Shown: positions 1,645 to 18,207 of the stretch, piece by piece
How the letters are laid out: every line of letters starts with the position of its first letter
How positions within the stretch are numbered: position 1 is the stretch's first letter
From: a virus
Lineage: Duplodnaviria; Heunggongvirae; Uroviricota; Caudoviricetes
Length of the DNA: 42,371 nucleotides
Direction: 5' to 3' (one strand)
IMG/VR virus record: IMGVR_UViG_2778261056_000006
Span: 1 to 42,371 of that record
Position numbers and translations under genes: made by a program
The notes under the pieces: model-generated
Database searches by the model: none
What the model was told of the DNA's origin: nothing
Seen by the model: the letters and a program-made list of their open reading frames with translations, nothing else

Positions 1645-4600
1645 TTATGCCTGAGTACGCAGCGCTTCAAGGCGGCGCAGGTCGAAGTCGTTCAGTTCGT
1701 CGGTGTAGTCAGCAGTGATTGGCGCTGGCCATTCACCTGTGTCGAATCCGGTTGCGATATTGCGCATCGCTTTGCGGTACTCGAGCATACCCAGCTCCAG
1801 TAGTTCAGCGGATGCCTCGATGATGGCGATCCAGTGGTAGTTCTCGTCTTTGTTGACGAAAATCCAGAAGAACTGATCCAGCGCTGCGGTTTCGCAGTAC
1901 ATAGCCGCGCTCAGGTGATAATCACGTTCAATAATTTCCCGGTGTAGCCTGGCGCGCAGGCTTTCCTGCTTAACATTCCACATGCTGATGGTTTTCAGGT
2001 CTGCACCTATACGCACGCCATCCAGGTCGATCTCAAGGTCAGGGCGCACACGAACTTCCAAGCCCGTCTCCTCGTCAAAACCAAAGTAGCTCACCTCAAC
2101 GGCTCGGCTAGGGTGGGTCAGCAGCATGCCGGCGGTCGGGTGTGCCAGAAGCGCTTTTTGAATATTCAGCGCGGTGCTCAGCTGCTGGCGGGTGACCAGC
2201 ACTTTTCCTTCCGGGTTATCGCGCCAGGCATCCAGCAGTTCGTCGGCAAATACGGCATCTGGTTTGACTGCCTTCACGGCCTGGATCATGTCTGCTTTGG
2301 TACCGGACACTTTCAGTGGTGCCGGTTTCTGTGCTTCCTGAGCCACAAGGTCAGGGTTGATGATTGCCAACTGCTCCAGCAGCGCGTCACGGCTGCCGCT
2401 GGTTTTAACCGGCGGCGGCAGGGTGGCGTTGTACTCTTTAATGCATGCCTTCATTGCCGTCGCCGTCTGCTTCTGGTCACCATCAATACGCTGGAAGTCA
2501 GCTGGCAGCGCCATATAGTTCTGTGCCGTTTCTTCCAGGTTAGCGCCAAGCGGAACCTGCGGCGGCAGGGTGGCGTTGTACTCTTCCAGTAACACCTTGA
2601 TGTCGTCGGCAGACAGCAGCGCCGGCAGGCTGGCATTGTGCTCATCGATAAAGGCGCGCAGGGTCGCGGCCGTTGTGAATGCGCCTTCAGGGATCACCGG
2701 TTCAACGCTGAATTCTGCGTCCAGTAGTTCAGGCTGCAACGCCAGCGCATGCACCAAGTTGCCCATGTCCAGCACCGCTGAGCGCTCTTTGACGATGGTT
2801 TTCTCTACGTGGCGCGCATTGAAGTACATCAGCGAAACGCGCGCATCTTTCACCTGGGTTGAGCTGATGCCGTTGGCGGCGTGGTAAACCTCGTTTGGCA
2901 GCCCTTCATAGCGGCCTGGCTCGAAATAAGCGGGATAAACAACAGCCGGTTCGTCAGATTGCGCTTCTGGCTCGGTTTGTGCTGCAACTGGTTCGGTTTG
3001 GCTTACAGAATCGCTATTTTTGGCGACAGAATCCGTATTCTGGTTTACATCGTCCTTCTGGCTGGTATCTGACTCTTCACCAGACTCCAGACTGCTTTCG
3101 CCTGGCTGTACTTCATCACCAGCTTGTTTTTCATCACTGACAGTTTCTTGAACCTGCACATTGCTGGTGGTCTCCGTAGCCTTTTTCGTGCCATGAGTTG
3201 CTGAGTTCTGCAGCAAAGCCGTAACGTCGAATATTCCGTTGCCGACATTTTTAACCAGTTCTTGTTCGACTTTCTGCGGTTGTGCTGCCGCTTCCTCTGC
3301 GCGGCGGCGTGCTCCTTCTTCACGCACGCGTTGCAGGTTCTCTTCGTGAGTGCAGAAGGATTTGCGCGGAGACTCCTTACCTTCAGGTTGGGGAATTTCC
3401 TGTGCTGCGGGTTCAGCCTCATGCAACGGCAATAACTCGACCGCGGAATTGAACGCGGCTGTCATGGTCTGGTTAACAAATTCCAGGTGAGCGACAGGAG
3501 TTAAATGAATATTTTCCGGTGCGATACGTACCAGGTTAAAAATAGCCGTGCGGTTAACACCCAGAACGCCTGGCTGATTGCGCAGGATGTTGCTCCATGA
3601 TTTCCATGGTTCTTCTTTTTTGGTCACGATTTCTTTAGCGCGACGAAGAATGCTGCCCGGGATCTCGAAGTGGTTGAAGTCCATAGGCAGAAGGGCACAC
3701 GCAATCTCTAAATCGAGAGTGTCCAGTGTGTGGTGTGCGTCAGGTCCACGGTCAGTGACGTAACCGCCGTCGGCATTAGTGCCGGAATCAGTACGCTGCA
3801 CACTACTGATGCGATTACCGGCGGCCCATTCGCGAACGAGGATACCGCGGTCGATGTGATCTGTAGCGAACCACAATTTCAAAAACTGGATTAAGGTTGC
3901 GAGTTCAGGGATTTTTCCATCGACAGGGAAGACTTTCTTAACGGCATTCACGACTTTATGAATATCGTGCTCAATGGCTTTTTTGAATGCTTCCACATTC
4001 TCAGCTGCCAGCAGCAGGTTCTGGACGTACGCGTCATCGGTGTCCATCTCAAGGCGGACAATCTCATTTTTCTGCCCTGCGTCGATGTGATAGAGATATT
4101 CACCATCACCGATGAACTGAGCCAGTACGCGCTGGCGGAATGGCAGGGTGGCAACAACGATCAGGTTCGGTTGCTGTGTCTGCTGGGATTGCTCTTCGGT
4201 ATCGACTTCACCATCAACGACGCCACCTTCTGCCCGGCCGTTCTCGTCGGTCTGGATACCGTCCTCAACAGTGAGATCTTGACCCGTTGTAACGTCAGCA
4301 GCGTTGCTGGTTTCAGTTTTGAGCAACTGCAACTTACCACTGCGCCAGTCTTCTACCAGTTGATTGCGGTCACCGGCATCGGTGTTCACCCAGTCAGACA
4401 TGAATGCAGCGATCAATCTTGGTTCGTGCTCTTCGTCTGGTGTGAAAATGTCCTTAACCGCCCGAATCATTTTCCACTCAGCATTCAGGCTGAGTTTGGC
4501 GGTCGCGGGCACATCGTTCCTTGCCACAAGCAGGCTATGGAGATATGTATTGCCTTCATCCAGTGACATTTCGCTGGCAGCCAACTGCTGCTCTTTAGTG

Positions 4601-5034: not shown

Positions 5035-5174
5035 GTGAGATCCTCATTTTTGGGTGTTAGAATCCCCGGACCATTGATAGCGCCCATTGGGTTAACTTTG
5101 GTTTTAATGTTGTTTCCGGTGTAACTTTGGTCGGTGAGGCCGGACATGGCGGGCCCACTTCGGTGGGCTTTCGC

Positions 5175-5462
5175 TTAACTGACGGCTACGATCGCCTCAT
5201 TCATAAAATCTTGCTTGTATGTACGGTAGGTTCCCCAGCCGGCGTAATCGCTATCGCTGATTTTGAGTACCAGCAAGCTGATCTCCTCAATGGCGCAGTG
5301 CGGGCAATCAAACTTGCCAAGCACATAGCCACCGTCGAGAATGACTGTTGTTTCACCGTTTGTAGTTGAGTGAATAACGCCTGATACTTTCTTCTCGCAG
5401 TTGAATGCAGCCACTTCTTTATTCACTGCTTTCAGGTTCATTTCGATTTTTACGATTTCCAT
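5175..5462 (-). CDS. hypothetical early-left protein
   Basis: 95-aa ORF in the leftward early operon between recE and the PL-like promoter. Confidence 0.5.
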   Translation of the reverse strand: MEIVKIEMNLKAVNKEVAAFNCEKKVSGVIHSTTNGETTVILDGGYVLGKFDCPHCAIEEISLLVLKISDSDYAGWGTYRTYKQDFMNEAIVAVS

Positions 5463-5720: not shown

Positions 5721-6071
5721 CTAGTGGCTGAGTCCATGCCCCAGACCGTTCAGATAAACTTCAACCAGCAAATCCTTGGTGTAAGTCATCTCCACGCCGC
5801 GATGCAGATACAAACGTCCGCGAGCGTTAGCTGATGCCGTCCAGGTTGAGTCTTTGTGTTTGACGAGCATCCCCGGCTGAACTGCGCCGCGGTTTACCGT
5901 CTGTGTACCGTAGTGCTGATGAACCATGATGTTCTCCACTATTGCTGAGTGAACTTCGCTGGTGGTGCCGTGGTGCTGATCTTCACAGTTGAGCGTTTTA
6001 ACTCTGCAGTTCACCACCGCGAAGCTCACTCTGTGCTTTGCCCTTGTCGCCAGGCTGGCGGAACGTTTCAA
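5721..6071 (-). CDS. hypothetical protein, first gene of leftward operon (Kil-like position); start uncertain
   Basis: 116-aa ORF beginning with TTG; internal ATGs at residues 49 and 68 would give a 68- or 49-aa product; directly downstream of the PL-like promoter. Confidence 0.35.
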   Translation of the reverse strand: MKRSASLATRAKHRVSFAVVNCRVKTLNCEDQHHGTTSEVHSAIVENIMVHQHYGTQTVNRGAVQPGMLVKHKDSTWTASANARGRLYLHRGVEMTYTKDLLVEVYLNGLGHGLSH

Positions 6072-6170
6072 ACCTACTGCGCGTTAATCTCACCACCTCA
6101 TTCCGGTTTTCGTATGCCCCGGACGGCTACTTCGTGGGCGTCCTGCTTTGGTGGTTGTGTTGATGGAGTA

Positions 6171-6199
6171 AGTAAAACACCGCTTTACCATTAAGTCAA
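6171..6199 (-). promoter_or_regulatory. PL-like leftward promoter overlapped by operator OL (GTAAAACACCGCTTTAC at 6172-6188)
   Basis: On minus strand TTGACT(-35, 6199-6194)-17 bp-TTTACT(-10, 6176-6171); operator dyad GTAAA-N5-GCTTTAC overlaps spacer and -10; near-identical to the PR arrangement. Confidence 0.5.
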
Positions 6200-6261
6200 G
6201 CAATGCAGATTCAAAAGGTAAAGCATAGCTGTATGTTGGGCGAAATTTATCCAGATTAGAG

Positions 6262-6513
6262 ATGATTGCATCAACTAAAAGTGTGTATGATGAAAAAAAA
6301 CATCATTGGGGGTGGGATGTGGAAAAGTTCTACGTGGGTTACAACGATGTATGTCAGGCGGTAGGTAGAGCGACGCTGAATCTGATATCACATGGAGACG
6401 CGCCAACTACTGAGGCGATCATTTCAATGCTTGAGTCGCTGGGGGATATTGAGAAGAACGATTTTTGGCGGCAGGTGTTCAGGTTTGCTGCTGAGGAAGT
6501 GCGAAAAGGGTAG
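6262..6513 (+). CDS. hypothetical protein (rightward gene between OL and the repressor operon)
   Basis: 83-aa ORF with ATG start, convergent with the repressor operon, ends at a shared hairpin terminator. Confidence 0.5.
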   Translation: MIASTKSVYDEKKHHWGWDVEKFYVGYNDVCQAVGRATLNLISHGDAPTTEAIISMLESLGDIEKNDFWRQVFRFAAEEVRKG

Positions 6514-6518
6514 GCAAT

Positions 6519-6550
6519 AAAAAACCCGGCGCAGTGGCCGGATTATTTAC
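6519..6550. terminator. bidirectional intrinsic terminator between convergent genes
   Basis: A6 run, stem CCGGC(6526-6530)/GCCGG(6537-6541) with 6-nt loop, then AT-rich tail; U-run available on both strands. Confidence 0.55.
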
Positions 6551-7154
6551 TATTCTGAGGTGCAGGTGCAGGTGCAGGTGCAGGTGCAGGTGCAGGTGCA
6601 GGTTGTATTATCTCGACAGGTTTTAGATGAGATTGCACTTGGGGCAACGCGAGAATTACGGCAAGCAATGCTAAAATGGCACCAACCATCCACTGAAGAG
6701 TGGCTGATGTCGTCTTTAAACCATCGATCTGCCCTTTTAATCCTTCGATTTGTCCTTTTAGGCCAGTAAACTCACCATTAACCCCTGAAATCTGAGCTTT
6801 AATTTCCGACATAGAGGTATTCATTGCAGAAAACTGCTGCGCTTGAAAGGCCCTAAATTCAGCCATTTCACGCCGCATCTCGGCGGCCACTACATCCACC
6901 TCTGCTTTGTTCTGAGCAAACTTGGCGTCAAGTTCTTCCCTTGAGATACCCACAGCATCTACCTCAGCATCTTCGCCTTTAACAATGGTTTGACTTTTAG
7001 ATAATGGATTCGTTCTACTTTTCCCCATTTTTGTTAAAATCGGGTTTTTCGGTCGAATATTTACCACATCCGCTTTTTCATGATATGCGGGCATGTGAAA
7101 TGCGTCAACTTTGACGTCAGGCGACGAGGTTTTGCGAATTGAGGCTCCATCCAC
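6543..7154 (-). CDS. membrane-anchored coiled-coil protein with C-terminal (Pro-Ala)n tail
   Basis: 203 aa; heptad-like GLKGQIEGLKGQIDGLK, one predicted TM helix (WMVGAILALLAVILAL), then PAPAPAPAPAPAPAP encoded by a hexanucleotide repeat; GTG start at 7154 (alternative ATGs at residues 21 and 43). Confidence 0.55.
   Translation of the reverse strand: MDGASIRKTSSPDVKVDAFHMPAYHEKADVVNIRPKNPILTKMGKSRTNPLSKSQTIVKGEDAEVDAVGISREELDAKFAQNKAEVDVVAAEMRREMAEFRAFQAQQFSAMNTSMSEIKAQISGVNGEFTGLKGQIEGLKGQIDGLKTTSATLQWMVGAILALLAVILALPQVQSHLKPVEIIQPAPAPAPAPAPAPAPQNSK
6559..6602. repeat. hexanucleotide microsatellite (GGTGCA)7 = minus-strand (CCTGCA)n encoding (Pro-Ala)n
   Basis: Seven perfect tandem copies read directly from sequence, inside the 3' end of the 6543-7154 CDS. 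Confidence 0.9.
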
Positions 7155-7159
7155 TTAAA

Positions 7160-7465
7160 TTAATCCTGCTTTTTAAGTTCGCGCTCAAAGGGTTCAATGA
7201 GACCCGGATCCATAACAGTAGCATTAAGTATTGCTTGAGCCATGTTTTTTGCCATAGACATTGGTAGAGTGACTGAACTAGTAGCCTCAAGAAACATATT
7301 CACCCCAGCTTCAGTATTCGTTTCATCAGGAATGTTCAAGTTGTCGACCACATGTCTACAAAAAGTAATGTGGCAATAGGCATTATCTCCGACATTCATT
7401 CCAGTAGTTATAAAAACATCCGCAAATCCAGCGTTGTAGTCTTTAGATTTTTTGATTTCTGGCAT
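7160..7465 (-). CDS. hypothetical protein
   Basis: 101-aa ORF with SD AAGGAG upstream of ATG at 7465; co-oriented with the repressor genes. Confidence 0.55.
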   Translation of the reverse strand: MPEIKKSKDYNAGFADVFITTGMNVGDNAYCHITFCRHVVDNLNIPDETNTEAGVNMFLEATSSVTLPMSMAKNMAQAILNATVMDPGLIEPFERELKKQD

Positions 7466-7505
7466 ATCTCACTACTCCTTCATTTTAAGATGAAATTGTC
7501 TTGCA

Positions 7506-7916
7506 TTATTCCATATCACCCTTAATCCGCCGCCCCATATACTTGGCGTACAGTTCATCGAGTTCTTTCAATCGTAGAGATACGATCCGCAACATGTTCT
7601 GTTGTTCTTCTTCGTTTGGGAGTTGATTATAGAGTTCCAACAGTCTCCGTTCGTCGTGTCTCAAACCGTCCTTAGCATCCACGTCCTGACCTAGAACCCA
7701 CTCAAGACTTACGCCTAGCGCATCGGCAAGTTTTATTGCTGAGCTTTTTCCTATCGCTCCTCTGACAAACCAGTTGTTGACTGATTGTGCGCTCACACCA
7801 CAGATTCTCGCTATATCCGCTTTGGATATGCGCTTCTTCTCGATGATTTCATTTAACCGCCGAACCTGCGGGTTATCTGTTTGGTGTGTGTTTTTTCTCA
7901 TGTACAAGAGTATCAC
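7506..7916 (-). CDS. XRE-family HTH regulator, paralogue of the prophage repressor
   Basis: N-terminal HTH (ISKADIARICGVSAQSVNNWF), C-terminal segment nearly identical to the adjacent repressor (LELYNQLP.EEEQQNM.RI.SLRLKELDELYAKYM.RRI.GD); ORF starts at GTG 7916, first ATG at 7901. Confidence 0.65.
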   Translation of the reverse strand: MILLYMRKNTHQTDNPQVRRLNEIIEKKRISKADIARICGVSAQSVNNWFVRGAIGKSSAIKLADALGVSLEWVLGQDVDAKDGLRHDERRLLELYNQLPNEEEQQNMLRIVSLRLKELDELYAKYMGRRIKGDME

Positions 7917-7920
7917 TTAG

Positions 7921-8304
7921 CTAATCAGCATCGCCCCTGATTCTGCGATTCATGTACTTGGCATATAGTTCATCGAGTTCCTTCAGACGCAGGGAGAAGA
8001 TCCTTATCATATTCTGCTGTTCTTCTTCCGGTAACTGTCTGTAGAGCTCCAGAATACGTTGTTCATCAGGCTTAAGGCCATCCTTCTCTCCAACATCCTC
8101 ACCAAGTAGCCAGGGGACGGATACCCCAGCAGCATCAGCAACCGCTAATGCAGAACTTTTGCTGATTCTTCCTGTTTTGAACCAACTGGAAACAGCTTGC
8201 TTACTGACGCCAGCAACCCTGGCCATCTCTGTTTTAGAGAAACCTTTCCGGTTCAGTTCTGTAAGCCTGGAGATCAGCCCAGTAGTCATTGTGTTTTCGC
8301 TCAT
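7921..8304 (-). CDS. CI-like prophage repressor (short XRE-HTH type, no S24 peptidase domain)
   Basis: HTH (FSKTEMARVAGVSKQAVSSWF) plus C-terminal oligomerisation-like domain; divergent from the Cro-like gene across an operator region; in-frame ORF extends to 8388 but that would bury the operators in coding sequence, so ATG 8304 (or 8289) is the likely start, possibly leaderless. Confidence 0.6.
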   Translation of the reverse strand: MSENTMTTGLISRLTELNRKGFSKTEMARVAGVSKQAVSSWFKTGRISKSSALAVADAAGVSVPWLLGEDVGEKDGLKPDEQRILELYRQLPEEEQQNMIRIFSLRLKELDELYAKYMNRRIRGDAD

Positions 8305-8313
8305 TTCACTAGT

Positions 8314-8330
8314 GTAAATGATTGCTTTAC
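8314..8330. promoter_or_regulatory. operator site OR-a (GTAAATGATTGCTTTAC)
   Basis: 17-bp dyad GTAAA-N5-GCTTTAC, one of three copies in the window, just upstream of the repressor start. Confidence 0.55.
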
Positions 8331-8351
8331 CAGTAGGTAGGCATTCATTGA

Positions 8352-8380
8352 TTGACTCATTGGTAAAATGATGCTTTACT
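8352..8380 (+). promoter_or_regulatory. PR-like rightward promoter overlapped by operator OR-b (GTAAAATGATGCTTTAC at 8363-8379)
   Basis: TTGACT(8352-8357)-17 bp-TTTACT(8375-8380), followed by SD AAGGAGG and ATG 8402; operator overlaps spacer and -10. Confidence 0.6.
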
Positions 8381-8401
8381 TTTTCCATCTAAGGAGGTCC
8401 T

Positions 8402-8626
8402 ATGACTGGTATTGAGAAAGCTATTCAAAAGTTTGGCACAGGTGCGGCACTCGGAAGAGCGCTTGGATTTTCAAAAATGACAATTTCCAACTGGAAGAAA
8501 ACTGGCATTCCGCCCGATCACATTCGCTCTGTTTTTGAGCTTACGGGAGTCACCCCGCATGAGTTGCGGCCTGACTTATATCCCAATCCAACCGATGCCT
8601 TACCAGTGCAAGAAACGAGGGCATAA
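8402..8626 (+). CDS. Cro-like HTH regulator (YdaS-type)
   Basis: 74 aa; HTH (AALGRALGFSKMTISNWKK) and HELRPDLYP motif typical of Rac YdaS-type Cro analogues; strong SD; divergent from repressor. Confidence 0.7.
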   Translation: MTGIEKAIQKFGTGAALGRALGFSKMTISNWKKTGIPPDHIRSVFELTGVTPHELRPDLYPNPTDALPVQETRA

Positions 8627-8628
8627 CC

Positions 8629-9168
8629 ATGCAGTCACTGTCACTTCATCAAAATAGCGGATATCAACCGGCTGCGATGATAAATCGCAATCAACCTGTC
8701 TCGGTAGATAAACATGACCAGATCCGCGATGCCGTTCGTGCGTGGGCGGGTGTAGATGGTCAGGATGTCGTTTCTGCTCTGATCATCGAAGAGTACCAGG
8801 CTCAAGGGGGAGACGAGATCACTTTCCCTGATGACCTCAGCCGACAGCGTCAGAAGCTTTTCCGCTTTCTGGATAACCATTTCAACAGCGAACGGTACCG
8901 CGAAAACGTTCGCCAGCTGACTCCGGCAATCCTCGCTGTCCTGCCGATTGAATACCGCAATCGTCTGCTACCAGAAGACAACGTAATGGCTCGTCTGGCA
9001 AGGCTGGAGAAGGAAACCAGCGAAGCGAAGATTGCTGTCGCAATGGATGCGCCACGTCATCAGAAGCTGAAAGAGTTGAGCGAGGGGATCGTGGAGATGT
9101 ATCGCGTTGACCCTGGGTTAACCGGTCCGTTGATGGAAATAGTGCAGATTATGCTGGGGGCTATATGA
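8629..9168 (+). CDS. YdaT-like regulatory protein (CII position)
   Basis: 179 aa directly after the Cro-like gene (4-nt gap); position and loose motif resemblance to the Rac YdaT family. Confidence 0.5.
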   Translation: MQSLSLHQNSGYQPAAMINRNQPVSVDKHDQIRDAVRAWAGVDGQDVVSALIIEEYQAQGGDEITFPDDLSRQRQKLFRFLDNHFNSERYRENVRQLTPAILAVLPIEYRNRLLPEDNVMARLARLEKETSEAKIAVAMDAPRHQKLKELSEGIVEMYRVDPGLTGPLMEIVQIMLGAI

Positions 9169-13216: not shown

Positions 13217-13867
13217 ATGAGCGACAACCAGTTAGCACCTTGTTGGGAATTTCAGCCTTACCTTGCTGAAAGCAATGTTCGTCAGTTGTTAGCGGAAATT
13301 GCTAATGTACTCGAGCAATTGTACTACCACAAACACACACTGGACAGTAACTGGTCCGAAGGTGTAAGGGCTTATGATTGGGTCAGAAATCATTTGATTC
13401 AAAGTGAAGGGACACTGCCGGGTCTGGAAATGGTTTCGAAGGGACTGGATTATGTGGTTGCGTTAAATAAAGTGCCGCTGCAGTTCTCCAAAGATTGCAT
13501 TAATAACCCGAAGAAGAAGCATCGCCTTCTTCGAAATAGGGTGGAGCATGAGCAACTTTCATTGTTCGGTGAAACTGAAGCCGAGCAAGATATTACATGG
13601 CGGATCATCGCCGAACCATTTTTATCCGATGAAGAAGATGGCGAGCTGGAATCAACATTGCCTCGCTGGGAAGTGGCTTTAGTTGGGTTTAACGCATATG
13701 GTGCCCAGATCAGTATGGTTTCACACCAATCTACTGCTTCAGCGCCGCTTATGTCTCTTGATACCAACACTCTTCCGGATGAAGCTGAGATTGGCAAAGC
13801 CTCTCTTCGCCGCCGTAAAAAAGATCAAGATTTGGATGTGAGCAGTAATGGAACATCAAGTGAATGA
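13217..13867 (+). CDS. unknown protein, candidate effector/toxin partner of the downstream HTH-peptidase
   Basis: 216-aa ORF with no motif I recognise; 3' end overlaps the next gene by 20 nt; preceded by TTGACA -35-like element and 12-bp direct repeats TTTGGTTGCTT. Confidence 0.55.
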   Translation: MSDNQLAPCWEFQPYLAESNVRQLLAEIANVLEQLYYHKHTLDSNWSEGVRAYDWVRNHLIQSEGTLPGLEMVSKGLDYVVALNKVPLQFSKDCINNPKKKHRLLRNRVEHEQLSLFGETEAEQDITWRIIAEPFLSDEEDGELESTLPRWEVALVGFNAYGAQISMVSHQSTASAPLMSLDTNTLPDEAEIGKASLRRRKKDQDLDVSSNGTSSE

Positions 13868-14951
13868 CTTTGCTGAGTATCGTGGGGATAAGCTCAAATT
13901 AGCCAGAATGGCTGTTGGGCTCTCCTGCGAAGAGTTAGCGGAGAAAATTGGTAAAACAAAACAATTCGTTAGCAAATTGGAAAAAGGGTTTAAACCATCA
14001 GAACAGTTGTTAGAATTAATCTCATCTGCGCTGATGATTAAATCTGATTTCCTATTTACTGAACGAAAATATGCTTTAGAAAGCGATGTTTGCCATTTTC
14101 GGAGTAAAAAATCGAGAACCCAAACATTAACCAATAGTGTTCTGGCAAGGGCGGAGATTCTTAACATTATAATCTCTGCCGTTGAGGGAGAAATCGAGTT
14201 TCCTGATGTTTTCATACCTGAGCACCCCGGTGCTGAATTGCTGACTCCAAATGATATTGAACGTGTAGCGGAAGACTGCAGAAGAGCATGGAACTTAGGG
14301 CTGGGACCTATATCCTCAATGGTCAAACTGGCTGAGAGTTTGGGGGTTATTGTTGCTCATGTGACAGGAGTGGATGACCGCGTAGATGCTTTTACTGTTC
14401 ATAACAACAGGCCAGTAATCATCCGAAATAACGTCAAAAAGAGTATATGCAGATTCCGATCAGATTTAGGTCACGAATTGGGGCACTTGGTTATGCACGA
14501 AGGTATAACCACAGGAGATAAAGTGACTGAATCGCAAGCGGATCGTTTTTCAAGCGCGTTGCTAGTTCCTCGATTGTCCTTTATTAAAGAGTTTCCCCGT
14601 ATACGAGGAAGACAGTTCGATTGGAACGCCCTAGTTGAGTTTAAGCTTCGGTGGAAGATTAGTCTTAAAATGTGCATTTACCGAGCAACAACTCTAGGCC
14701 TGCTGACGCAGGAGCAGGCAAGAACAGGTTATATGCATTTGAACTCTAAAGGATATACGAAAGTTGAACCAGGAGATGAATTTATTCGCCCGGAAGAACC
14801 GAGTATGTTAGCTGAGGCGATTGAAATGCTGGATGATGCAACATGGATGAGCATTCTCATGAAAACTGGTTTAAGCCAGGAGTTGGTTAGGGAGTTATTC
14901 TCGGTAAACCGCCCACTGTCAAATCCAAGAAATCTACTTCAACTGGTTTGA
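13848..14951 (+). CDS. fused XRE-family HTH + ImmA/IrrE (COG2856, Peptidase_M78-type) zinc metallopeptidase
   Basis: 367 aa; N-terminal HTH (LKLARMAVGLSCEELAEKIGKTKQFVSKLEKG); HExxH zinc motif HELGHLVMH in the C-terminal domain. Confidence 0.8.
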   Translation: MEHQVNDFAEYRGDKLKLARMAVGLSCEELAEKIGKTKQFVSKLEKGFKPSEQLLELISSALMIKSDFLFTERKYALESDVCHFRSKKSRTQTLTNSVLARAEILNIIISAVEGEIEFPDVFIPEHPGAELLTPNDIERVAEDCRRAWNLGLGPISSMVKLAESLGVIVAHVTGVDDRVDAFTVHNNRPVIIRNNVKKSICRFRSDLGHELGHLVMHEGITTGDKVTESQADRFSSALLVPRLSFIKEFPRIRGRQFDWNALVEFKLRWKISLKMCIYRATTLGLLTQEQARTGYMHLNSKGYTKVEPGDEFIRPEEPSMLAEAIEMLDDATWMSILMKTGLSQELVRELFSVNRPLSNPRNLLQLV

Positions 14952-15203: not shown

Positions 15204-15223
15204 TACTGTATAAAAACACAGTA
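15204..15223. promoter_or_regulatory. LexA box (SOS operator) upstream of dinI homologue
   Basis: TACTGTATAAAAACACAGTA, a near-consensus CTGT-N8-ACAG site, 19 nt upstream of the dinI ATG and overlapping the likely -10. Confidence 0.8.
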
Positions 15224-15241
15224 CATGCAATGGAGGCTATT

Positions 15242-15475
15242 ATGAAAGTTGAATTAACCATTGATCGCATGAAAGAACTTCCTAAAGGCGCAGTACCAGC
15301 ACTGGAGAAAGAACTGCTTAAGCGCCTGAATGATCACTATGACAATTGCAGGCTCACAATCCGCCGTGCCGGGTCCGATGGGTTAAGTGTTTTTGGTGGT
15401 GACAAGGACGATAAAAAGAAAATTGAATCAATCCTCCAGGATACCCGGGAAAGCGCTGACGACTGGTTTTATTAG
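15242..15475 (+). CDS. dinI: DinI-family protein
   Basis: 77 aa from ATG 15242 (SD GGAGG 5 nt upstream); aligns along its length with E. coli DinI (…LSV.G..K.DK..I..ILQ.T.ESADDWF). Confidence 0.85.
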   Translation: MKVELTIDRMKELPKGAVPALEKELLKRLNDHYDNCRLTIRRAGSDGLSVFGGDKDDKKKIESILQDTRESADDWFY

Positions 15476-15478
15476 AAT

Positions 15479-15505
15479 TGCGCTTAAGGCTGGCGCGCAT
15501 TTTTC
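15479..15505 (+). terminator. possible weak terminator after dinI
   Basis: TGCGC...GCGCA stem with long loop followed by T5; weak. Confidence 0.3.
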
Positions 15506-15592
15506 AGAATACCGCAATTTGCGTAACCCTCTGATGCTGCTGCCGACAATCTTTAATCGCGTCTGTTAGTCGCTCGAAGGGAGAACATAAAT

Positions 15593-15841
15593 GTGAGTGA
15601 TTCAGCTTTGCAAACGTCAGAAGACAACTGGTATGACATTGTAAGAAGGTCTGACGGCTGCGTGGTGTTTAGCTTTCCTTCATCGGGCAGGCATCTAATT
15701 TATCGCGTCAATGGCATGGTTTCTATGCGGCCTTTGCTGGATGATGAAGAGGTCTTTACTCCTAATGGTTTTATGCAATTTATCCGCCGTCTCGGCTACC
15801 GGGTAACACCACCTTCTGATAATATGAAATCAACGGTCTGA
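15593..15841 (+). CDS. hypothetical protein downstream of dinI
   Basis: 82-aa ORF with GTG start and SD GAAGGGAG; no recognisable motif. Confidence 0.45.
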   Translation: MSDSALQTSEDNWYDIVRRSDGCVVFSFPSSGRHLIYRVNGMVSMRPLLDDEEVFTPNGFMQFIRRLGYRVTPPSDNMKSTV

Positions 15842-18115: not shown

Positions 18116-18180
18116 AACGCATATATTTCATGTAAATCTGATATCGTCGCCATAGCTTCGTAGGTCGACAAAGAATTAAG

Positions 18181-18207
18181 AACCCGCCATCGAGCGGGTT
18201 TTTTGTC
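18181..18207 (+). terminator. intrinsic terminator downstream of Q-like gene
   Basis: CCCGC-catcga-GCGGG followed by T6. Confidence 0.65.

Follow-up and report, generated by a model that had tools for sequence, protein, structure and literature searches.

Putative repressor operators in the immunity region of a Gifsy-3/mEp237-type prophage

Introduction

In phage lambda, the repressor and cro genes are divergent, the operators overlap PR and PL, the repressor mRNA is leaderless and a moron slot follows the repressor gene. Each lambda operator contains three adjacent 17-bp sites, cooperative binding to OR1 and OR2 activates PRM, and the prophage is induced by RecA-stimulated cleavage of the 237-aa CI protein, which has an S24 domain. 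The Gifsy-3 and Gifsy-1 prophages of S. Typhimurium ATCC14028 have short, non-cleavable helix-turn-helix (HTH) repressors, GfhR and GfoR, which are ~61–66% alike and have different operators (Lemire, Figueroa-Bossi and Bossi 2011, PMC3121763). In S. Typhimurium SL1344 / 4/74, the repressor of Gifsy-1 is stated to be identical to GfhR (PMC3121763). These prophages further have a promoter situated between two in-frame AUGs, as described for gfhR, and, apart from the immunity region, a LexA box-dinI-antirepressor-irsA-type operon (PMC3121763); a recE/recT left operon is present as well. The operator sequences of GfhR and GfoR are neither printed in that paper nor found in the literature searched.

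CP-933P of E. coli O157:H7 has Cro and CII-like proteins of the YdaS and YdaT families, well-conserved palindromes over PRM and PR, a PL that has both its −35 and its −10 in common with PR, and cargo genes just downstream of the repressor gene (Jurenas et al. 2021, PMC8630535; PMC9986795). Its short repressor, PaaR2, is without a peptidase domain and is made from a leaderless mRNA mapped by 5' RACE (PMC8630535). In E. coli K-12, the cryptic prophages Qin (DicA/DicC) and Rac (RacR/YdaS) have short repressors of the same broad family; the OR of Qin has two dyads 50 bp apart (TTAG-N6-CTAA), and Rac has three sites ~26 bp apart (TTAGGC-N3-GCCTAA). The small antirepressor Rem relieves repression by DicA (PMC10448788).

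Here, we describe the immunity region of a prophage in a 42,371-nt stretch of DNA, the whole of which was analysed and is called the window. The region has, or is predicted to have, the first set of lambda features named above but differs from lambda in the second, with two sites per control region, 49 and 46 bp apart. It is similar, or predicted to be similar, to Gifsy-3 and Gifsy-1 in every feature listed, except that the two repressor types are found there in two prophages and here in tandem in one. The likeness to CP-933P covers all the points given, that to PaaR2 being by description rather than by alignment, and one difference is the predicted antirepressor route, which is not described for CP-933P. 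The short repressors are shared with Qin and Rac and the two-dyad OR with Qin, whereas the dyad sequences of both, the site arrangement of Rac and the cryptic state of the two prophages are different.

The repressor (gp39), OL, OR and cro of mEp237 (NC_019704 / JQ182730) are identical to those of the window, so mEp237 is predicted to be homoimmune with the window prophage; this identity also bears out an earlier claim that the dyads pin down immunity specificity. Identity in the early region of mEp237 is 97.5% across 43% of the first 25 kb, and the differences include other small genes between the repressor and OL, among them an extra HTH regulator, and a diverged second repressor allele, gp38. 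The operators are not annotated in the mEp237 record.

Results

The 17-bp dyad GTAAANNNNNGCTTTAC (GTAAA-N5-GCTTTAC) has exactly three matches in the whole window, all on the + strand (OR1, OR2 and OL1 in Table 1), as the initial annotation had stated. None is expected, and none of 100 dinucleotide-preserving shuffles contained a match. When the core was relaxed to GTAAA-N7-TTTAC with up to one mismatch, only three extra matches appeared, in coding or unrelated sequence, against 0.77 expected in total. The three repeats are almost certainly DNA sites for the repressor that silences the prophage. The exact matches, their conserved positions and the matching promoters agree with the earlier proposal that the dyads mark OL and OR.

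Table 1 Features of the immunity region and of the SOS operon in the window.
Feature	Positions	Strand	Description
PL	6171–6199	−	TTGACT 6199–6194, 17-nt spacer, TGt, TTTACT 6176–6171; hexamers invariant
OL1 dyad	6172–6188	.	GTAAAACACCGCTTTAC; over PL spacer and −10; exact motif match and PWM match
OL2, degenerate 17-mer	6218–6234	.	GTAAAGCATAGCTGTAT; 46 bp from OL1; PWM rank 4, 12.4 bits
Second HTH paralogue, 131 aa	7506–7901	−	19 nt past repressor stop; 61% identical to repressor
Repressor, 127 aa	7921–8304	−	HTH and conserved C-terminal domain; Pfam HTH_3, Phage_CI_repr
Candidate repressor-promoter −10	8311–8316	−	TACACT; 6 nt before ATG 8304
OR2 dyad	8314–8330	.	GTAAATGATTGCTTTAC; 49 bp from OR1; overlaps candidate repressor-promoter −10
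PR	8352–8380	+	TTGACT 8352–8357, 17-nt spacer, TGc, TTTACT 8375–8380; both hexamers invariant in relatives
OR1 dyad	8363–8379	.	GTAAAATGATGCTTTAC; over PR spacer and −10; exact motif match; PWM 22.9 bits
Cro-like gene, YdaS family, 74 aa	8402–8626	+	Pfam YdaS_toxin PF15943 4.5e-12 (46 bits, cut-off 30); weaker P22_Cro; PHROG transcriptional repressor
CII-like gene, YdaT family, 179 aa	8629–9168	+	Pfam YdaT_toxin PF06254 2e-25 (89.5 bits, cut-off 21); PHROG CII-like activator 7e-57
LexA box	15204–15223	+	TACTGTATAAAAACACAGTA; 5' of dinI operon; same layout in Salmonella L011 and Gifsy prophages (PMC3121763)
dinI homologue	15242–15475	+	First gene of operon; Pfam DinI 3.6e-23; PHROG DinI
82-aa ORF, candidate Gifsy-type antirepressor	15593–15841	+	By position only: between dinI and DUF1367

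A PWM scan of the whole 42 kb, a check suggested with the initial annotation, gave only four credible sites and no further strong copy. The fourth site, OL2, does not rise above chance by score alone (median best score of the shuffles, 11.7 bits), and we accept it because of its position and conservation: Salmonella (GTACAGCTTTGCTTTAC) and Klebsiella each have a counterpart that is likewise 46 bp from OL1. The half-site that had been suspected near 6217 (GGTAAAGC, 6217–6224) is thus real and is part of this degenerate 17-mer. Other PWM matches, at 3501, 13174 and 14665, are at chance level and were rejected. By analogy with the equally spaced palindromes of CP-933P, we also looked for an additional OR site halfway from OR2 to OR1 and found none. 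The two OR sites are ~4.7 helical turns apart and the two OL sites ~4.4, so simple same-face cooperation is not evident. Between OR2 and OR1, the sequence TAGGTAGGCAT (8334–8344) is invariant in relatives.

TTGACT-N17-TTTACT has exactly two matches in the whole window, PR and PL, and three matches were found with up to one mismatch versus 0.19 expected. An alignment of PR and PL that starts at the −35 hexamer shows the same base at 32 of 44 positions, with TGn immediately before the −10 in each. PR reads into the Cro-like gene, with a predicted transcript start near 8387 followed by a Shine-Dalgarno sequence (AAGGAGG) and ATG 8402, and PL, with a predicted start near 6164, reads into a kil-ydaE-recE-recT operon. 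PR and PL both escaped a generic sigma-70 promoter scan of 5900–8700, which requires an A at position 2 of the −10, where TTTACT has T; this T at a normally invariant A position counts against the promoter calls, which we base on the exact shared TTGACT-17-TGn-TTTACT and its conservation. The earlier statement that each dyad overlaps a near-identical promoter holds for OR1 and OL1, while OR2 overlaps a different, leftward −10-like hexamer. The −35 of this candidate repressor promoter is very poor (TACCTA), and the hexamers TACAAT, TATTCT or TAGAAT are found 6–8 nt before the repressor ATG in Salmonella, PHB10, Kp4865-4, SEN34 and L002. The PL leader is conserved; a structured RNA or nut-like element was rejected there, given the lack of a stable fold (z = +1.5) and of any Rfam match.

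The resident repressor is 100% identical to mEp237 gp39 and 79–92% identical to proteins of 155 aa that abound in Salmonella prophages. HTH_3 and Phage_CI_repr are its only domain matches, with none to an S24 peptidase or Ala-Gly cleavage module. The DicA model gives a weak full-length match (E 9e-8) below its own cut-off, and a search of solved structures for a relative returned only spurious ubiquitin matches and a weak HTH match. A ParA-like gene follows some of the Salmonella 155-aa homologues (83–88% identical), as in Gifsy-1 and Gifsy-3, and in the mEp237 record gp39 is noted as similar to ACY87915 of strain 14028S. From this annotation note and the locus-tag ranges, rather than from an aligned GfhR sequence, we tentatively infer orthology with GfhR.

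Two start codons, at 8304 and 8289, had been considered for the repressor. ATG 8304 is the conserved start, as the corresponding M29 of the long form is invariant among homologues, and the 8289 start was rejected since its Met is not conserved. The mRNA is probably leaderless, as had been suspected, because the −10-like hexamer lies 6 nt upstream of ATG 8304. An in-frame 155-aa long form could start at ATG 8388, and this frame is open in all of the best 120 homologues listed. We consider it unlikely to be the main repressor because its start falls within the PR initial transcribed region and because the only well-conserved residues of the 28-aa extension, VKHHFT and KAIIY, are OR1 and OR2 read in frame. 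Since most of OR lies inside this conserved long frame, the conservation of OR could be partly coding.

In Salmonella and Klebsiella loci with a 79–86% identical repressor, the dyads are at the same places, with an OR pair 49 bp apart and OL1 accompanied by a degenerate OL2 46 bp away. The dyad arms and promoter hexamers are invariant while the interiors, including the interior bases of OR1, and the flanks vary, and OL1 is conserved across the OL regions of both genera despite different downstream genes. The spacing is also retained in five heteroimmune relatives (OR pair 48–49 bp apart in five of five; OL pair 46–47 bp in all four with OL located), in which the dyad sequence changes together with the repressor HTH. 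The dyad is GTAAAY..GGTTTAC in PHB10 and 1368KP (for the second OL site of PHB10, the only match is to the related TAAAC motif, with one mismatch), TAAGC..GCTTA in SEN34, TAAAC-N5-GTTTA in L002 and ST974 (four copies each) and RTAAA-N7-TTTAY in Kp4865-4 (OR pair only). L002 represents a natural swap: it shares the 6320–7901 backbone with the window at ~98%, yet OL and OR are both different in it. The repressor recognition helix is invariant in every case in which the dyad arms are.

L002 and L018 have the orthologue of the second HTH paralogue as their only repressor, and four TAAAC-N5-GTTTA sites are present in each. From this, the second paralogue is predicted to recognise TAAAC-N5-GTTTA, which has no match in the window even with one mismatch allowed. 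Equal binding by either paralogue, which the initial annotation had envisaged, is therefore not expected. The C-terminal domains of the two repressors are ~82% identical, and tandem repressor pairs in which the second allele is exchangeable are seen repeatedly, namely in mEp237, in E. coli TC24 and 1368KP, and in Salmonella phage SEN34.

The right operon is of the YdaS/YdaT type, with a YdaS-family gene at the Cro position followed by a YdaT-family gene at the CII position. The best match to the YdaT operator TTGATT-N6-AATCAA has two mismatches and does not exceed chance (8677–8694; four such matches found versus 2.3 expected), and this YdaT has diverged from the characterised one. Farther downstream, a hairpin with a T-run precedes the LexA box, and the order terminator-LexA box-dinI-82-aa ORF-DUF1367 is the same in Salmonella L011, as in a Gifsy-type operon. 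The 82-aa ORF has no family annotation in domain or PHROG searches; its counterpart in L011 is 94% identical and lies beside the same repressor type.

Discussion

We conclude that the dyads very likely serve as operators in an immunity region of the Gifsy-3/mEp237 type. The 127-aa repressor is predicted to bind the four 17-bp sites as a dimer in the lysogen, with GTAAAGC as the consensus half-site. Occupancy of OR1 and OL1 over the spacer and −10 of the extended −10 promoters PR and PL would block RNA polymerase, silencing the cro, cII-like and replication genes rightward and kil and recET leftward. Negative autoregulation should follow from the overlap of OR2 with the −10 of the candidate leaderless promoter of the repressor gene itself. 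OL2, which lies upstream of PL beside a small divergent ORF, would be a weak site. Upon DNA damage, LexA would leave its box and allow transcription of the dinI-ORF82 operon, whose small antirepressor would remove the repressor from the DNA; the same sites would then probably be used by the YdaS-type Cro. Binding, transcription starts, autoregulation and the role of the antirepressor are all predictions from the sites, their conservation and co-variation with the HTH, and the gene families. By analogy with the Gifsy prophages, induction is predicted to occur via the LexA-controlled antirepressor and not via RecA-stimulated cleavage (PMC3121763).

The dyads could instead serve mainly the YdaS-type Cro, or Cro and the repressor to an equal extent. 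In CP-933P, the footprints of PaaR2 and of YdaS fall in one intergenic region and overlap both promoters (PMC8630535), and the N-terminal two-thirds of cro changes with the immunity type, as the repressor HTH does. However, the repressor recognition helix stays constant with the dyad arms, and Cro alone would not need the OL sites; we regard this alternative as unlikely. Use by Cro would in any case complement rather than replace the repressor sites, because lambdoid Cro and CI share operators. Far less probable is that the repeats reflect ancestry or coding constraint and not protein binding, with PR and PL as duplicated cassettes and the OR copies kept for VKHHFT and KAIIY in the long form. 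The in-frame reading of OR1 and OR2 as the only well-conserved residues of the extension would fit this, and so would the 32 of 44 positions shared by PR and PL, which include bases outside the dyad. Yet OL1 and OL2 are non-coding and keep their arms across genera while the flanks diverge, OR2 has the dyad without a TTGACT promoter, and the sites are two-fold symmetric. In heteroimmune relatives, moreover, the offsets are kept while the dyads differ in step with the HTH, which would not be expected of a passive duplicate.

We see almost no likelihood of a lambda-style switch, in which a cooperative repressor activates its maintenance promoter, OL and OR loop together and RecA-stimulated cleavage induces. 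The gene order resembles that of lambda in that the repressor and cro genes diverge, a cII-like gene is present and PL lies on the far side, and in CP-933P low PaaR2 activates PRM and PaaR2 forms octamers (PMC8630535). In contrast, the repressor here has only 127 aa and no S24 peptidase domain, each control region has two sites 46–49 bp apart instead of three adjacent ones (no third site by PWM), and the site nearest the repressor gene covers its −10 rather than lying beside the −35. In addition, Gifsy repressors are not cleaved (PMC3121763), and a LexA-dinI-antirepressor operon is present. The initial annotation had described lambda OR/OL logic with another operator; operators at PR and PL and divergent repressor and cro genes support this description, but there are two spaced sites per region, four in all. 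The switch is an ordinary member of the Gifsy/mEp237 family, lambda-like only in outline.

Tentatively, and as something possible rather than probable, the second paralogue may be an 'immunity moron': a working repressor in the lysogen-expressed slot after the resident repressor gene, with the TAAAC-N5-GTTTA operators of heteroimmune phages as its only targets. Immunity of the lysogen would then extend to two phage types, and a single LexA-controlled antirepressor would switch both repressors off, which is suggested by the similarity of their C-terminal domains. Alternatively, the paralogue may bind the resident operators weakly, as the arms differ only as TAAAG versus TAAAC, may form heterodimers with the resident repressor, or may act as a buffer for the antirepressor.

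In summary, the analysis provides an operator map (four sites, three promoters and the repressor start) for a class of enterobacterial prophages that is very widespread yet little dissected; this immunity type, Gifsy-3/mEp237, is present in hundreds of Salmonella assemblies, and these operator sequences were not found in print in the literature searched. The general picture of such switches is unchanged by the map. The comparison also yields a small recognition code, in which the arms TAAAG, TAAAC and TAAGC each pair with particular HTH variants, and this code could predict the homo- or heteroimmunity of Gifsy-like prophages straight from sequence.

Probable operator dyads and promoters at OL and OR

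An exact search of all 42,371 bases found GTAAA-N5-GCTTTAC at OL1, OR2 and OR1 only, and none of 100 dinucleotide-preserving shuffles of the window contained a match, in agreement with the three copies of a 17-bp dyad described in the initial annotation. The near-identical promoter claimed at both operators was also found, as exact copies of TTGACT-N17-TTTACT at PR and, on the opposite strand, at PL. Aligned from the -35 element, the two stretches have the same base in 32 of 44 positions; in each, TGn directly precedes the -10 element and the sequence continues with TCCATC. Because a generic promoter scan listed neither PR nor PL, as TTTACT has a T at the most conserved A of the consensus, we infer these promoters from the exact duplication, the extended -10 and the conservation rather than from a score. 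The gene-level picture, a Cro-like gene rightward and recE/recT leftward, is correct according to the ORF and family calls.

Salmonella and Klebsiella loci were scanned for the dyad. Every locus scanned has a perfect pair, 49 bp apart, before the repressor and, beyond the accessory genes, one perfect dyad on the far side. At 46 bp from the far-side dyad lies a one-mismatch site, GTACAGCTTTGCTTTAC, in Salmonella and a two-mismatch site in Klebsiella. OL2 (GTAAAGCATAGCTGTAT), which includes the possible half-site noticed near 6217, is the same element; this is supported by position and conservation, its score (12.4 bits, shuffle median 11.7) alone being not above chance. The alignments show no variation in the dyad arms, TTGACT or TTTACT, in contrast to the dyad interiors and flanks. 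The arms and hexamers are also invariant in the non-coding OL, although the genes downstream of PL differ among loci.

Features of the window
Feature	Position	Strand	Remark
isrB match	5076-5173	+	Rfam, 38.2 bits
PL-kil leader	5929-6163	-	~235 nt
PL	6171-6199	-	TTGACT-N17-TTTACT
OL1	6172-6188		perfect dyad
OL2	6218-6234		degenerate site
Small ORF	6262-6513	+	divergent from PL
Bidirectional terminator	6523-6544		at end of small ORF
Coiled-coil ORF	6543-7154	-	203 aa
(GTGCAG)7	6560-6601		tandem repeat
Second paralogue	7506-7901	-	131 aa; 61% identical to repressor
Repressor	7921-8304	-	127 aa; HTH_3 + Phage_CI_repr; no peptidase domain
TACACT	8316-8311	-	-10-like hexamer
OR2	8314-8330		perfect dyad
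TAGGTAGGCAT	8334-8344		between OR2 and OR1
PR	8352-8380	+	TTGACT-N17-TTTACT
OR1	8363-8379		perfect dyad
Cro-like gene	8402-8626	+	YdaS family
CII-like gene	8629-9168	+	YdaT family
ATGATAAATCGCAATCAA	8677-8694		5' end of YdaT-like gene
Two-gene cassette	13217-14951	+	nin-like region
LexA box TACTGTATAAAAACACAGTA	15204-15223	+	near-consensus; after terminator-like hairpin
LexA box to 82-aa ORF	15204-15841	+
isrJ match	18131-18203	+	Rfam, 58.7 bits

Co-variation of dyads and repressors

In more distant relatives, whose repressors are 55-78% identical, the site geometry is kept and the dyad sequence is changed. The repressor HTH shifts in step with the dyad: the window type has SKQAVSSW, the type of the E. 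coli locus L002 has SAQSVNNW, and the remaining types have TPQAVNGW or TPQSVNGW. The C-terminal half is nearly invariant across immunity types. The window and L002 share ~98% identical DNA from OL to the second repressor, and OL and OR differ together. Such a joint change should be seen for operators and not for passive repeats, and it is mainly for this reason that the dyads are very probably the operators of this immunity region.

Dyads and their spacing in heteroimmune relatives
Locus	Dyad	OR	OL
Salmonella phage SEN34	TAAGC..GCTTA	3397, 3446 (49 bp)	4378, 4425 (47 bp)
Phage PHB10	GTAAAY..GGTTTAC	3400, 3448 (48 bp)	5212; second near 5259 only as one-mismatch TAAAC-type match
E. coli 1368KP	GTAAAY..GGTTTAC	3425, 3473 (48 bp)	1425, 1472 (47 bp)
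E. coli L002	TAAAC-N5-GTTTA, four perfect copies	3350, 3397 (47 bp)	1574, 1620 (46 bp)
Klebsiella phage ST974	TAAAC-N5-GTTTA, four perfect copies	47 bp	46 bp
Klebsiella phage Kp4865-4	RTAAA-N7-TTTAY	3409, 3457 (48 bp)	not located

Predicted start and promoter of the repressor

The repressor start had been placed at 8304 or 8289, possibly leaderless. All aligned sequences keep M29 (ATG 8304), whereas relatives carry Q, L, P or S in place of the Met at 8289, which argues for 8304. TACACT lies 6 nt 5' of this ATG, with no Shine-Dalgarno sequence. Because a -10-like hexamer 6-8 nt before the repressor ATG recurs in relatives (TACAAT-N6-ATG in Salmonella, PHB10 and Kp4865-4, TATTCT-N6-ATG in SEN34, TAGAAT-N8-ATG in L002), a leaderless or nearly leaderless repressor mRNA would appear to be a family trait. 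The predicted start agrees with gfhR of Gifsy-3, whose main promoter lies between two in-frame AUGs, both functional (Lemire et al., PMC3121763), and with PaaR2 of CP-933P, leaderless by 5' RACE and N-terminal sequencing (Jurenas et al., PMC8630535). The overlap of OR2 with the repressor's candidate -10 suggests negative autoregulation. The -35 of this promoter is poor; TAGGTAGGCAT stands at its expected position, agrees with the consensus at 2/6 positions and is invariant in E. coli, Salmonella and Klebsiella, with varying neighbours.

With an in-frame 28-aa upstream extension (ATG 8388, 155 aa), the repressor has hundreds of homologues; of the 120 best, 118 have a length of 154-156 aa. Read in frame, OR1 (VKHxFT) and OR2 (KAIIY) account for the conserved residues of the extension. 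On induction, the long GfhR* form is made from a promoter further upstream (PMC3121763). By analogy with PRE of CP-933P, which is activated by YdaT (PMC9986795), a long repressor form may arise from a PRE-like leftward promoter. No convincing YdaT site was found in the window. ATGATAAATCGCAATCAA, whose position parallels lambda PRE, has two mismatches to the published YdaT operator TTGATT-N6-AATCAA and is not above chance.

Comparison with lambda and induction

The initial annotation saw lambda OR/OL logic reproduced. The outline is indeed lambda-like: repressor and cro diverge, operators cover PR and PL, the repressor message is predicted to be leaderless, and there is a post-repressor cargo slot. 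The architecture and the predicted route of induction differ, however: at OR and at OL, two sites 46-49 bp apart take the place of three adjacent ones, and the repressor, unlike lambda's, is predicted not to cleave itself. Every site covers a promoter's spacer and -10 element, which makes OR, and probably OL, resemble a pair of promoters placed back to back. In the wider family, the OR dyads number two in Qin, 50 bp apart, and three in Rac, at ~26 bp; CP-933P has four palindromes at equal spacing and the same hexamers in PL as in PR (PMC8630535).

The repressor lacks an S24 domain, and its only named family match, to DicA, is weak and full-length. The LexA box precedes a DinI homologue, an 82-aa ORF without annotation and a DUF1367 gene. 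This operon recurs in a Salmonella prophage that has the window's repressor type, where the small ORF is 94% identical. This is the dinI-antirepressor-irsA arrangement that drives Gifsy induction without repressor cleavage (Lemire et al., PMC3121763), making the 82-aa ORF a candidate antirepressor by position only.

Surrounding genes

The O- and P-type replication genes come after the CII-like gene, and kil, ydaE, recE and recT lie leftward of 6171. High conservation of the PL-kil leader extends to all related loci, heteroimmune ones included; its RNA fold is not significant (z = +1.5) and it has no Rfam match. The small ORF, conserved from GTG 6319 and weakly similar to a 68-aa Salmonella gene in the matching position, has a possible promoter (TTCAAA-16-TATGTT) beneath OL2. 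The (GTGCAG)7 repeat encodes the (Pro-Ala)n C-terminal tail of the coiled-coil ORF; it is clearly longer in L002, elsewhere 98% identical, and therefore varies in copy number. Matches to two Salmonella island sRNAs, isrJ and, marginally, isrB, exceed the Rfam gathering score. The cassette, in which a 216-aa ORF that matches no family precedes a 367-aa HTH + Peptidase_M78 (ImmA/IrrE-like) protein, may be a regulatory or defence moron.

Distribution of the immunity region and the second repressor

In coliphage mEp237, the repressor is 100% identical and the OL, OR and cro sequences are the same as in the window. The repressor-OR-cro stretch is present at a coverage of at least 80% in 2 of 5,426 complete E. 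coli genomes, one of which, TC24, matches it at 100%. Homologues of the repressor share 83-88% identity with it in Salmonella, 92% in Citrobacter and 79% in Klebsiella. Module junctions lie within genes, at 7921-8139 (against the comparison locus L023) and 8560-8626; E. coli 1368KP shares the repressor C-terminal domain at ~99% and has a different HTH domain, and many O157, O26 and O103 prophages match only in the last ~60 nt of cro. Our literature search found GfhR only in Lemire et al. (PMC3121763) and these operator sequences printed in no paper, so the operator map is new as annotation; the immunity system is typical of a family already described and identical to that of a sequenced phage.

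The second paralogue starts 19 nt past the first repressor's stop, with no Shine-Dalgarno sequence and GATACT 7 nt upstream. Tandem repressor pairs also occur in mEp237, TC24, 1368KP and SEN34, and in other relatives this slot holds HicAB, HipA-like, ParA-like or protease cargo. The only repressor of L002 is the orthologue of the second paralogue (DNA identity 99.5% over the gene), and the four TAAAC-N5-GTTTA sites of L002 occupy OL and OR positions; the comparison locus L018 has four copies too. Neither the window nor the mEp237 OL-OR segment has a match to TAAAC-N5-GTTTA, even with one mismatch. The L002-type OR/cro segment has full-length matches in 9 of 5,426 complete E. coli genomes. As the operator arms differ by one base (TAAAG vs TAAAC), the paralogue may cross-bind weakly to resident-type operators. 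It is plausible that the second paralogue has a heteroimmunity function, and it may extend immunity to a second phage type.
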